Shown one piece after another: positions 3 to 19,471 of a DNA stretch of 26,875 nt; positions within the stretch are counted from its first letter, which is position 1, and every line of letters begins with the position of its first letter. The notes under the pieces were generated by a model that was not told the origin of the DNA, ran no database searches, and saw nothing but the letters and a program-made list of their open reading frames with translations. The position numbers were made by a program, and so were the translations under genes. The DNA comes from Patescibacteria group bacterium (GTDB lineage Bacteria > Patescibacteriota > Minisyncoccia > Minisyncoccales > UBA10102), in contig JAHIUP010000043.1 in the NCBI GenBank assembly GCA_018816925.1, positions 1 through 26,875 of the forward strand, in the 5' to 3' direction.

Positions 3-1358
3 AAGCCGGAGGATCTTGCAGCCATATTAATCAACACTTACGGCATGACGCAAGCGAATCTTGATGCCGTATGCGACCGCACCCTTCCTTCCGCTGAAAA
101 AGCCGGGGTGTGGCTGGATGAAGGATTGACTGCTTTCTCAAATCCAATTGAAGCCCCTGACATTGATATAACCGGAATGAGTCTGGTTCCATTTGGAGAA
201 ACCGCACTCCCAAAACTTCCGACAGTACTATCAAAAGATGTGCGTCCTATTTTGATTCCTGCAAAAGCGAGAGAAACTATCACGGTAAAAGAATTATGGT
301 ATTGCCGTGGGGGGAACATCGTTTGGAAGGATTCGCAAGGTGTAGTATTGGAAACGATAGATACTAGAGACGGTTCTTGCGTAAGAGATGTGCAATTTAA
401 TGCTCCAAAAGACGATACGTATCAATTATCCTGCAGTGATCAATGCAACATGGATGTAGTGTCACACGGCGCTTCCTACCTGGTTAAGCCGGGAATGAAT
501 AAAAGATTGCTTGGCGCAGGCAGCATGTACTTCTATGTTCCGGAGGGCAGTGCAGGTCTTATTATAGGAGCTAAGCCATATGCAGACACCTATATAACAA
601 CAGTTAAGCTTTACGACGACACGGACTCCTTACAGCTTAATAAATCGTGTACCGGGGGAGGAGCATGCGAATGGGGAATGACAAATCCCTCTCCCGGAGT
701 CTGGAGAGTTGATTATGGAGGAACGTATGGCGGTGAGGGGACATATCTTTGGCTCCGCGGCGTGCCTCCATTAATGTGGCACGATCCCCAGTATCTCCTT
801 ATTCCATCTTCTTCTCCCCCTCCTTCCCTCCCTATTTCTTCTGGGGGCGGCTTTTCCCTTTTCTCTTTACCCAGACACTACCTCTTCCAAGACGAAGACA
901 ACACCTTGGAGGTGCAGGGAGCCAGCTTTGACACCGCAAAGACCTTTACCATTAAGTTTTTCCAAGCAGAAGTAGAGCAAAAGAGTATTTCAGTAATTCC
1001 TGCGGACTCCGCTACTCTCCGTACCACTCTCTCTGTTGCAGACCTCTCCTCTTTGTCTCCGGGCCTTTACGACATGGCAGTGGAGAGTACTTTAGACAGC
1101 ACTACTAAGACCTATTCCACCAAGATAGCCATAACCAAGAGAGGAGACCTCTGGAGCCAAGGAGCCACTGACTCTTCTTTGCAAAAGAGAGACGGCAAGG
1201 TAGATATCTACGACGTCTCAAGAATGCTCTCCAAGTGGGGAAGCACCCAAGCAACAGATCTCCAGGAGGCAGACATTAACGCAGGCCCCAACAACGTCTC
1301 TGCCAACAAGATAGACCTGTATGACGCCAACAAGATGATGGCGAATTGGACCGGGTAG
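3..1358 (+). CDS. Extracellular protein with Ig-like domain and C-terminal dockerin-like module; 5'-truncated by the window edge
   Basis: The frame is open from base 3 (KPEDLAAILINTYG-M), so the 437-aa ORF is a partial. It has a P/S/G linker (PSSSPPPSLPISSGGG), a beta-rich domain, then a duplicated EF-hand-like pair DGKVDIYDVSRMLSKW and ADIN...NKIDLYDANKMMANW at 1140-1355. Confidence 0.7.
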   Translation, partial: KPEDLAAILINTYGMTQANLDAVCDRTLPSAEKAGVWLDEGLTAFSNPIEAPDIDITGMSLVPFGETALPKLPTVLSKDVRPILIPAKARETITVKELWYCRGGNIVWKDSQGVVLETIDTRDGSCVRDVQFNAPKDDTYQLSCSDQCNMDVVSHGASYLVKPGMNKRLLGAGSMYFYVPEGSAGLIIGAKPYADTYITTVKLYDDTDSLQLNKSCTGGGACEWGMTNPSPGVWRVDYGGTYGGEGTYLWLRGVPPLMWHDPQYLLIPSSSPPPSLPISSGGGFSLFSLPRHYLFQDEDNTLEVQGASFDTAKTFTIKFFQAEVEQKSISVIPADSATLRTTLSVADLSSLSPGLYDMAVESTLDSTTKTYSTKIAITKRGDLWSQGATDSSLQKRDGKVDIYDVSRMLSKWGSTQATDLQEADINAGPNNVSANKIDLYDANKMMANWTG

Positions 1359-17368: not shown

Positions 17369-18757
17369 ATGGCAGATATTGAGCAGAGCATGTTTCGAGA
17401 GTACGACCTGCGGGGTCGGGAGAGTGAGCAGGAGCTCAACGAGGTTTCCATGGAGCTTGTGGGCAAGGGGTATGGCACCTTCCTTCGTAAGAGAGGATTG
17501 GAAAGGGTGGTGCTTGGCCATGATAGTAGGGGGACTTCAGGGGCATTTGCAAAAGCCGTCTTGCGCGGGCTTCTTGCGACCGGGTGCAAGGTAGTACTCG
17601 TGAACACCGTTACTACTCCCATGCTCTACTGGAGTCAGTACCATTTTGAGACGGAGGGAGGAGTCATGGTGACCGCAAGCCATAACCCGCCTGGTTGGAA
17701 CGGAGTCAAGCTCGCCCTCGGTTACTCCGTTACCCTAAATACTGCAGAGCTCCAAGAGGTGTATGAGAGTATTCGGAAGGATGATTTTTTCCAGGGGGAG
17801 GGGGTAGTGGAAAAGGAAGAGGATATTTCAGATGCCTATCGGGAGGATTTGGTGAGCCGCGTACAGGGGATAAAACCATTGAAAGTTTTGGTAAATACGG
17901 GGAACGGAACCGCAGGTTTGTTTGCCGCAGATATTCTTAGGGCCGCAGGGTGTGAGGTTATTGAGTATCTTACTAATCTTGATTCAAGCTACCCCCATTA
18001 CACTCCTAATCCCGCGCAGGTAGAGATGATGGAAGATACGGGAAGGAGGGTACGGGAAGAGGGCGCGGACCTAGGGTTTGCATTTGACGGAGATGGGGAC
18101 CGGCTCGGATTGGTAGATGAACACGGAGAGAACGTTTGGCCCGACCGCTATCTTATTCTATTATCCCGCCTGGTACTACAAAAGAATCCTGGAGCGAAGA
18201 TTGTGTTCGATGTAAAGGTATCCCAGGCCCTGCCAGAGGATATTGAAGCACACGGAGGAGTTCCAATTATGTGGAAGACCGGACATTCTCATATTAAGGC
18301 GAAAATGAGAGAAGAGGGAGCGGTGTTGGCGGGAGAGATGTCAGGCCACATTTTCTTTGTGCAGGATTATTACGGATTTGACGATGCTTTCTTTGCGAGC
18401 CTGAAACTTTTGGAATACTTTTCAGCGCAAGGGGAGCCAGTTTCAAAGCTTATTGCAGAAACCCCGTATTACATTTCTACTCCTGCTCTTCACGCGAATT
18501 GTCCAGACGATAAAAAATACCAGGTAGTACAGGAACTTACCGAGGAATTCAAAAAAGCATACAATGTCATTGATATTAATGGCGCGCGCGTTCAGTTCGG
18601 GGACGGCTGGGGCCTTGTGCGCGCTTCCTCCAATCTTCCCGCTCTCGTTTTGCGCTTTGAGGCGAAAACAAAAGAGCGGTGCCAAGAGATAGAGCAGCTC
18701 TTTCGAGAGAAACTCAAACGGTACGACTTTGTAAGTCAGGACTGGTATCCCGCCTAG
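17369..18757 (+). CDS. Phosphomannomutase/phosphoglucomutase (alpha-D-phosphohexomutase family)
   Basis: FREYDLRG start, phosphoserine loop TASHNP, metal loop FDGDGDR, sugar loop GEMSGH, and GWGLVRASSNLP. Confidence 0.95.
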   Translation: MADIEQSMFREYDLRGRESEQELNEVSMELVGKGYGTFLRKRGLERVVLGHDSRGTSGAFAKAVLRGLLATGCKVVLVNTVTTPMLYWSQYHFETEGGVMVTASHNPPGWNGVKLALGYSVTLNTAELQEVYESIRKDDFFQGEGVVEKEEDISDAYREDLVSRVQGIKPLKVLVNTGNGTAGLFAADILRAAGCEVIEYLTNLDSSYPHYTPNPAQVEMMEDTGRRVREEGADLGFAFDGDGDRLGLVDEHGENVWPDRYLILLSRLVLQKNPGAKIVFDVKVSQALPEDIEAHGGVPIMWKTGHSHIKAKMREEGAVLAGEMSGHIFFVQDYYGFDDAFFASLKLLEYFSAQGEPVSKLIAETPYYISTPALHANCPDDKKYQVVQELTEEFKKAYNVIDINGARVQFGDGWGLVRASSNLPALVLRFEAKTKERCQEIEQLFREKLKRYDFVSQDWYPA

Positions 18758-18806
18758 GCGGGTATCCTGCTTAGTTGAGTAATCCCACGCGTTTGAGGTT
18801 AAATAT

Positions 18807-18846
18807 GTATTTCACTTTTTTGACGATCGTCAAAAAAGTGAAATAC
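18807..18846. repeat. Perfect 40-bp palindrome 5 nt past the stop of the PaaX/Cas2-like gene
   Basis: GTATTTCACTTTTTTGACGA|TCGTCAAAAAAGTGAAATAC; possibly also a bidirectional terminator. Confidence 0.95.
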
Positions 18847-18851
18847 TAGAG

Positions 18852-19403
18852 TTAGAGCCCAAAGTGGTTTTTAAGATCTTTATCAGAGTCGATGTTACTT
18901 ACGGCAAGAAAACGAAGCTCTCTGCTGAAGTGCTTCTTATAGAGAGAAAGGAGCTCTTGGAGTTCTTTTGAGACATCAAAGGGAAACACCCAGACGCTTT
19001 TTTGAAGTTCCGCAAAGCCAATATATTTGAGTTGATTTCTTAGAAAATTGCGATCTTTTCGTGAAATCTCTGGGATGTCAAAAATTACTACAAACCACAA
19101 ACCGTTCCATGGCTTTGTGGTGAGAAGGTGAGCAAGCCGATAGCGATAGAGTGCGAGCTGCCCTAACGGCGTGAGTTTGAGATAAGAATTCCCCCCTCGT
19201 TTTCTTTGTGAGAGAAGACCGCGTTTTTTTAGACGATGCATCTCAAGAGAGAGACGCTGAGAAGGAAACGGCTTGTCGAGATGTTCTTTGACCTGTCTCC
19301 AATTGCGTGGGGGATTGAGTAGTATTTCTCCGGTGCCGATTACCACGTCAAACATACGCGTAAGGATTTCGTAGCCGACGGTGTTAAGATGAAGCTTTTG
19401 CAT
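18852..19403 (-). CDS. PaaX-like protein: winged-helix N-terminus plus Cas2-like domain (orphan; no cas1 or array in the window)
   Basis: LSLEMHRLKKRGLL......YLKLTPLG (wHTH wing) followed by WNGLWFVVIFDIPE..RKDRNFLRNQLK.IGFAELQKSVWVFPFD. ATG 19403 is preferred because of the -10 box upstream. Confidence 0.75.
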   Translation of the reverse strand: MQKLHLNTVGYEILTRMFDVVIGTGEILLNPPRNWRQVKEHLDKPFPSQRLSLEMHRLKKRGLLSQRKRGGNSYLKLTPLGQLALYRYRLAHLLTTKPWNGLWFVVIFDIPEISRKDRNFLRNQLKYIGFAELQKSVWVFPFDVSKELQELLSLYKKHFSRELRFLAVSNIDSDKDLKNHFGL

Positions 19404-19410
19404 TAGATTT

Positions 19411-19439
19411 ATTATATCAAAAGTATGACGATCGTCATA
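19411..19439 (-). promoter_or_regulatory. Promoter (TATAAT 7 nt before the ATG) with a 16-bp palindrome over the -35 region
   Basis: The minus strand reads TATGACGATCGTCATA-CTTTTGA-TATAAT-AAATCTA-ATG. Confidence 0.65.
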
Positions 19440-19471
19440 GTTGTGCAATGGAAGAGATGGGCCTAATGGGT

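Follow-up and report, generated by a model that had tools for sequence, protein, structure and literature searches.

In the 26,875-nucleotide stretch of patescibacterial DNA analysed here (the window, meaning the whole of that stretch), a short PaaX-like gene, mini-PaaX, stands between two palindromes that have the same 12-bp core, TGACGATCGTCA. Paired flanking palindromes recur around its relatives in other genomes, and each paralog has a core of its own. Judged from sequence comparison, we think it rather probable that gene and palindromes make up a self-contained, exchangeable and autorepressed cassette, in which a mini-PaaX dimer would bind its two dyads and the Cas2-like domain of the protein would help to read their sequence. 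The host is an ultra-small groundwater bacterium (assembly G000: 607,471 bases, 93.5% complete, GC 0.52). CPR/Patescibacteria have tiny genomes with few known regulators.

Results

The core occurs only twice in the genome, at the two ends of the mini-PaaX gene

The features of the locus and the palindrome types of the paralogs are collected in Table 1. The gene lies between convergent trpS and pmm, and the upstream dyad sits 32 nt past the trpS stop. A sequence-only reading had placed the core inside a 40-bp palindrome just past the stop codon and inside a 16-bp palindrome over the −35 box, and these coordinates were confirmed. Both copies of TGACGATCGTCA are beside the mini-PaaX gene. As that reading had also stated, no further copy is present in the window, even when up to two mismatches are allowed; nor was one found in the whole 607,471-base assembly, where about 0.04 would be expected by chance. 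The cassette was likewise found to be richer in AT than trpS, its GC content being 0.39-0.48 against 0.53-0.56 for trpS and the neighbours and 0.52 for the genome. The starts of the homologs align with this ATG and not with an upstream TTG.

Table 1. Features of the mini-PaaX locus (positions in the window) and palindrome types of the four other paralogs in the genome.
Feature	Position	Strand	Remarks
Insertion segment, pmm stop to trpS stop	18758..19471	.	714 nt
mini-PaaX gene	18852..19403 (stop codon included)	-	183 aa; ATG at 19403, stop 18852-18854
mini-PaaX domains	residues ~9-77; 79-96; 97-183		wHTH; linker helix; Cas2-like ferredoxin fold
Sigma-70-like promoter	19411..19438	-	ATGACG, 16 nt, TATAAT, TG upstream; 10/12 positions
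Upstream 16-bp dyad TATGACGATCGTCATA	19424..19439	.	core 19426-19437; proposed operator over -35 box and spacer
Downstream perfect 40-bp zero-spacer palindrome	18807..18846	.	core central (18821-18832); 5 nt past stop
Paralog on C7			palindrome type TCCGATCGGA
Paralog on C49			palindrome type TTACGATCGTAA
Paralog on C14			palindrome type GCGCGGCCGCGC
Paralog on C27			palindrome type GCTATCGCG, inside TTATT..AATAA arms

Only one good promoter match was obtained, and it can be seen that its −35 hexamer is overlapped by the 16-bp dyad. Since the predicted −10 box ends 7 nt before the ATG, the mini-PaaX mRNA is probably leaderless; a best −10 box that ends 6-7 nt ahead of the start codon was also seen in 16 of 61 family members. 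When folded as RNA, the 40-mer forms a hairpin of −25.5 and −28.8 kcal/mol on the two strands (z about −8 and −7, respectively), and the upstream 16-bp dyad folds like shuffled sequence (z −0.2). A terminator scan of the locus gave no U-tract terminator, and no Rfam family matched, the only matches being sub-threshold and microRNA-like hairpins. Contigs assembled from four groundwater/biofilm runs break inside the 40-bp palindrome, as is expected of k-mer assemblers.

Other palindromes are present in this DNA. A 14-bp palindrome, CCCGCCTAGGCGGG, holds the pmm stop codon (18749-18762 of the window). In the whole assembly, perfect zero-spacer palindromes whose arms reach 9 nt or more number 22, as against a chance expectation of about 2, and several of them fall into small families, for instance CCCCGCCAGTCCATGGACTGGCGGGG on C44 and C71 and ACTTCAATACTAGCTAGTATTGAAGT on C12 and C56.

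The gene product is a short PaaX relative with a Cas2-like domain

An AF2 model of the 183-aa protein (pLDDT 83.5) consists of a winged helix, a linker helix and a ferredoxin-like domain, and when the whole model was searched with Foldseek the top structures were E. coli PaaX (8a39) and the PaaX-like proteins 3l09 and 3kfw. In Pfam, PaaX_M (PF20803) matched residues 97-156 with 66.4 bits against a cut-off of 24 (2.4e-18). The PaaX wHTH profile PF07848 reached 13.5 bits on the N-terminus, against a cut-off of 24.8, and the best profile sequence match of this wHTH domain was AspA. Pfam gave no hit to the PaaX_C ligand-binding domain, the protein stopping at residue 183, and the score with TIGR02277, the full-length PaaX equivalog, was far under its cut-off (41.7 versus 264.55 bits). 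Two Cas2 profiles came out just under their cut-offs (PF09827, 19.7 versus 23.8; TIGR01573, 21.6 versus 24.5), and the protein also aligns with solved Cas2 chains. The gene product is a short PaaX relative, made of a winged helix and a Cas2-like domain and lacking the PaaX C-terminal domain. The HUH motif is absent from its sequence, and the Pfam and fold searches matched only PaaX and Cas2-like proteins. A homodimer prediction for the 183-aa protein scored 0.29, the mark being 0.42, a value that speaks neither for nor against a dimer. Many paralogs have a hydrophobic stretch at the N-terminus, which was considered as a membrane helix and rejected, as it aligns with the first helix of the AspA wHTH.

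Among 34 aligned relatives, Gly81, Asp109 (FDIPE), Arg118, Leu125 and Ser136 (QKS) are invariant. The acidic residue of the Cas2-type strand (FDI), which the earlier reading had pointed out, is therefore kept in 34 of 34. When aligned with 3exc, a Cas2-like structure, Asp109 falls on its YDV motif and Ser136 on its QRS motif; the PaaX-like Rv0674 has other residues at both positions. Cas1 (PF01867) was not found in the 93.5%-complete genome, while the control genomes were positive.

Paired flanking palindromes are found across the mini-PaaX family

The gene had been described as an orphan. This did not hold, because the genome contains five mini-PaaX paralogs (the window gene and four more), all of which have their own paired flanking dyads. 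Dyads of two of these types lie beside further genes as well: the C27-type dyad brackets an unrelated 173-aa gene (C12:11472 and 12250) and occurs once inside an rsmI-like gene (C8:4590), and the C49-type dyad occurs twice more, upstream of the neighbouring 193-aa gene (C49:909 and 974). It suggests that some paralogs may control other genes.

The family is patchy and multicopy, being present in 29-30 of 60-61 relatives with 1-14 copies in genomes of 0.4-0.9 Mb. A profile search of 50%-identity clusters returned at least 1,370 at E < 1e-30 and 7,090 at E < 1e-3, and a metagenome scan with the mini-PaaX protein returned just two distant loci. The literature on PaaX in Patescibacteria, on PF20803 and on the Cas2-like domain was searched, and no description of the mini-PaaX family was found in it; the family is large and apparently undescribed. 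The median identity between a paralog and its best match within the same genome is 45%, only one pair exceeding 80%, which indicates that paralogs within a genome are old. The sole recent within-genome duplication seen is in G056 (L029 and L136; 88% amino-acid identity and 83% identity at four-fold sites).

The pairing of flanks was measured on 105 family genes with complete flanks from 31 genomes, 200 nt upstream being compared with 150 nt downstream. An exact word of at least 12 nt is common to both flanks in 54% of the 105 genes, against 1.5% of mismatched flanks, and one of at least 20 nt in 16%, against 0.07%. The two dyad centres agree at 10 or more of the 12 core positions in 61/105, and the consensus of the family dyad is roughly AAttttTGCGA|TCGCAaaAATT. 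The geometry is constant, with the upstream centre at a median of 39 nt before the start codon, the downstream centre at a median of 28 nt after the stop codon, and a median of 632 bp between the two. In most types tested (from G000, G029, G049 and G036) the dyad occurs at the two flanks only. These results agree well with the self-contained unit, a protein together with dyads that belong to it, which had been proposed from the window alone, for paired palindromes are much more frequent than chance would give and every paralog possesses a core of its own. Across the family no helical phasing of the dyad-to-dyad spacing was found, so strict looping is unsupported. The next gene downstream points the same way as the family gene in 35 cases and towards it in 26; this unbiased orientation indicates that the cassette stands alone and is not part of an operon.

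Covariation with the dyad peaks in the first helix of the Cas2-like domain

Mutual information (MI) between protein columns and dyad positions was calculated from 61 clean pairs. Residues 112, 115, 119 and 135 gave z values of 7-8.5 with dyad positions 1-5 over a background of 1-4, and the values for the recognition helix and the wing were 4-5 and 4.6-6.4, respectively. Glu119 is paired with GCA at positions 3-5 in 16 of 20 cases, over eight different central dinucleotides, and Arg or Lys at this position with G at position 4 in 3 of 3. At residue 112, a centre of GA|TC or TA|TA is accompanied by Glu or Asp, GT|AC by Asn, and CT|AG or CA|TG by Gln. Such pairings are chemically plausible. One clade has the recognition helix DTFxRLRR throughout; its outer half-site is constant, and its central dinucleotide changes with residues 111-112.

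It had been anticipated that the palindromes would covary with the recognition helix of the wHTH. The pairing itself was found in the homologs, but the peak of covariation lies elsewhere, at residues 111-119 and 135 of the Cas2-like domain. As a raw association, this peak in the first helix of the domain is a strong lead; independent-contrast tests, which had low power (median p 0.06-0.5), gave the same direction throughout. The covarying residues occupy the side of helix 1 that faces away from its conserved hydrophobic stripe, and they adjoin the invariant Asp and Ser. In Cas2 dimers the corresponding region is near the two-fold axis. The position of the covarying face, together with that of the Cas2 axis, suggests that a Cas2-like dimer may sit on the dyad centre. 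Sequence reading is, to our knowledge, not a known property of the Cas2-type fold.

The cassette is an insertion at a variable junction

The gene order rnj, trpS and then convergent pmm is kept across the taxonomic order. In at least 12 relatives the stops of trpS and pmm overlap by 4 nt or are 1-28 nt apart, and no palindrome is present between them. Empty pmm-trpS sites, which the earlier reading had proposed to look for, thus do occur, and the cassette has been inserted. The junction shows no target-site duplication. A low-depth contig of an approximately 87%-identical relative, in which the pmm end seems to be joined to the trpS end with 19 other letters between, is a weak hint of a further empty site, its shorter side being only about 30 nt. 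A homing-endonuclease model was rejected, as both full sites survive the insertion.

The surroundings of the cassette differ among relatives. In G014, as in G000, it lies at trpS-pmm in the same orientation; in G034 the ortholog is inverted at the same site; in G037 the cassette is between rnj and pmm; and in a metagenome relative (49% identity) it is between a trpS-like end and a convergent 440-aa gene. The same 12-bp core is found at both ends of 44-45%-identical relatives sited between EamA and FtsK, which suggests that protein and site travel together between contexts. At trpS-pmm itself, other cargo was observed (L055 = G003:C11, L045 = G001:C2, L049, L052 and L056), comprising HicA/HicB, HAD-type hydrolases, an HD-domain-like gene and, in the same set of loci, an IS200/RAYT-like gene between two copies of GGGCTAAAACNGTTTTAGCCC. 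As its cargo differs among relatives, the junction is a variable hotspot.

Exchange was examined through the silent sites. The C49-type paralog has 74-83% identity at four-fold sites among three genera, whose trpS genes are saturated at 36%. Compared with G034, nucleotide similarity runs from 10 nt before the upstream dyad centre to 18 nt past the downstream centre; compared with G014, the start is some 50 nt ahead of the upstream centre and the end is the same. The homologous gene downstream has diverged normally. These comparisons show that the C49-type cassette passed between genera in recent times, the similarity stopping close to the dyads. The C27 type shows vertical inheritance, with saturated silent sites and conserved synteny.

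Does the cassette propagate as selfish DNA?

A mobile element composed of a palindrome plus a gene, comparable to REP/RAYT, is the main alternative, which we regard as unlikely. The wHTH/Cas2-like protein would bind the palindromes at the cassette ends and, by means of its Cas2-type Asp, nick or process them, perhaps as extruded hairpins; in this way the cassette, or solo palindromes, would be inserted, excised, inverted, exchanged or copied. Much of what has just been described is in its favour: the junction that is empty in at least 12 relatives and takes up other mobile cargo (HicAB, the IS200/RAYT-like gene), the patchy and multicopy distribution, the C49-type exchange among three genera that ends near the dyads, the inverted ortholog in G034, and the Asp109 and Ser136 that are invariant in the family and replaced in Rv0674.

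The palindromes of one genome bear on it as well. In G037 (L143-L152), a perfect 36-44-bp palindrome centred on GTGTCCGATCGGACAC flanks one mini-PaaX paralog. It occupies 15 intergenic sites there, 13 of them besides the flanking ones, near housekeeping genes such as dnaB-, rplU- and rplT-like genes, and a search of 60 other genomes gave no copy. From copy to copy the outer arms vary, yet the two arms of any one copy remain complementary to each other. By analogy, this spread is the pattern of REP/RAYT with an unrelated protein.

Against the mobile element stands, first, the number of sites, the core having only two copies in the genome and most types tested behaving likewise. Secondly, the within-genome paralogs are old, without transposition bursts, and some members, as the C27 type, are vertical. 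Thirdly, neither a target-site duplication nor a solo palindrome at the empty sites could be seen. In addition, end palindromes accompany genes of another kind. A 156-aa gene of the Trp-repressor family (PF01371; C19:1996-2498 of the same genome) has the palindrome TACTTCGAAGTA 16 nt from each end, and a second PF01371 gene (C23:19139) has a 24-bp palindrome at its start. As the bracketed Trp-repressor-family gene has no nuclease-like domain, palindrome bracketing needs no Cas2-like domain. Finally, we know of no Cas2-fold protein that acts as a recombinase. That the family is a new selfish protein-plus-palindrome class of CPR, with a Cas2-fold dimer that reads and may also cut the dyad centre near the Asp/Ser pocket, is a proposal we put forward with considerable doubt; such cutting would drive the gain, loss and inversion of cassettes, their passage from genus to genus and now and then a REP-like spread of the palindromes. 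If it were true, the protein would be a self-associated Cas2 relative that recognises a particular sequence, and it might connect Cas2 with mobile elements that are specific for DNA sites.

The dyads as duplex DNA or as hairpins

The self-complementary arms may be read as duplex DNA or as a folded strand. In the family, mismatches in the arms of the downstream copies are G:T in 37 cases and A:C in 10, and in the upstream copies 22 and 19; the median arm length is 18 downstream and 13 upstream. The G:T excess and the longer arms point to a role as RNA hairpin for the downstream copy only, although the excess could also stem from strand-biased deamination. The words shared by the two flanks are palindromic through the centre, mostly with zero spacer, in 33 of 57 cases against about 10% of control words. 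A self-complementary centre is needless for a hairpin loop, and a symmetric dimer on duplex DNA is therefore favoured. In our reading of these patterns, both copies would be duplex binding sites, and the downstream one would also serve as the 3' hairpin of the mRNA.

It is improbable, in our judgement, that the protein instead binds a folded hairpin of RNA or single-stranded DNA, for example the 3' hairpin of its own mRNA in post-transcriptional feedback, with the Cas2/RRM-like fold as the nucleic-acid-binding module. The high stability of the downstream copy (−25.5 kcal/mol, z −8), its tolerance of G:T over A:C and its longer arms would suit such a model, and it was as RNA nucleases that Cas2 proteins were originally described. 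However, the upstream copy has the same core, yet it precedes the predicted transcription start, has no folding signal (z −0.2) and has no G:T bias. In addition, the central bases are self-complementary, which would not be required in a loop, and the pairings of Glu with C and of Arg/Lys with G fit reading of duplex DNA from the major groove.

That the palindromes are merely structural, as terminators or insulators made alike through local duplication and recognised by no protein, is highly improbable: both copies do lie at gene ends, the upstream one shortly past the trpS stop, in a genome rich in long zero-spacer palindromes, but the pairing is family-wide with an own core for each paralog, the core follows the protein subfamily across genomic contexts, specific residues covary with specific bases, and the terminator scan gave no U-tract.

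Discussion

A probable autorepressed cassette

The above results are best accounted for by the autorepressed cassette, whose order is dyad, promoter, gene, dyad, in a usually empty junction of convergent trpS and pmm. From the sequences we infer that mini-PaaX most likely acts as a symmetric homodimer on the zero-spacer dyad TTGACGA|TCGTCAA, taken as double-stranded DNA. The upstream dyad would be the operator over the −35 box, and bound protein would block RNA polymerase there, giving autorepression. The downstream dyad would form the tip of a 40-nt hairpin by which the mRNA is ended or stabilised; with protein on it, this dyad could be a second operator, or a roadblock to transcription that comes in from pmm. 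Specificity would come in part from the exposed face of helix 1 of the Cas2-like domain, which is near Asp109 and would lie over the dyad centre.

Some points count against autorepression. The strong sites are beside the gene itself only, so that an output for the cell is not obvious; perfect palindromes of 40-48 bp exceed the footprint of a dimer; and the spread of the G037 palindrome, together with the movement of some cassettes between genera, is more typical of selfish DNA.

Comparison with known systems

The paa catabolon is under the repressor PaaX, which responds to phenylacetyl-CoA (E. coli W, PDB 8a39). The canonical protein represses its own promoter by steric hindrance of RNA polymerase, and its operator is TGATTC-N27-GAATCA (PMC9493321). 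Together with the dyad that overlaps the mini-PaaX promoter, this precedent supports the reading as an autorepressor. Mini-PaaX resembles PaaX in having, by its AF2 model, an N-terminal wHTH followed by a Cas2-like middle domain. It differs in the absence of the C-terminal ligand-binding domain, in a site that is a compact zero-spacer dyad, in sites that bracket its own gene with no catabolic regulon, and in the many paralogs of the family, each with its own site. Unlike the PaaX-like Rv0674, it keeps the Asp and Ser of the Cas2 type.

Autoregulated repressors with a second, distal operator are known from looping of the gal, lac and deo type. As in these systems, one mini-PaaX site lies over the promoter and an identical one is several hundred bp away. 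In contrast to them, the second site is past the stop codon of the regulator's own gene and doubles as an RNA hairpin, the dyad spacing lacks helical phasing, and no other target genes were found.

Mini-PaaX has the ferredoxin-like fold in common with Cas2, and also the pattern of motifs, in which a hydrophobic strand closes with Asp and a Q-x-S strand follows. Unlike Cas2, it scores under both Cas2 cut-offs, is fused to a wHTH and is encoded in a genome in which no cas1 was found; its variable surface residues track the DNA sequence, which is not known for Cas2.

In the REP/REPIN and RAYT systems, palindromes are dispersed in the genome and a gene is flanked by copies of its own palindrome (Bertels and Rainey 2011, PMC3116915). 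Similarly, one mini-PaaX gene lies between two copies of its own palindrome, and in G037 that palindrome has spread. However, mini-PaaX is not an HUH/Y1 (IS200-like) transposase, in G000 and in most other genomes tested its palindrome is limited to the pair at the flanks, and a genome holds several diverged pairs of paralog and palindrome. From insertion sequences and transposons the cassette is set apart by the lack of near-identical copies within a genome and of an evident target-site duplication.

Implications

CPR genomes keep 5-14 such cassettes, which amounts to about 1-2% of their genes. If the autorepressed cassette is the right reading, the unit would be a minimal autoregulated gene that is exchangeable between genera, and the family would constitute a natural library of matched pairs of protein and DNA site, from which a recognition code could in part be read. 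That code would be located in a Cas2-type fold. The family would then bear on the origin of Cas2, and also on the rise and spread of palindromic repeats in reduced genomes.
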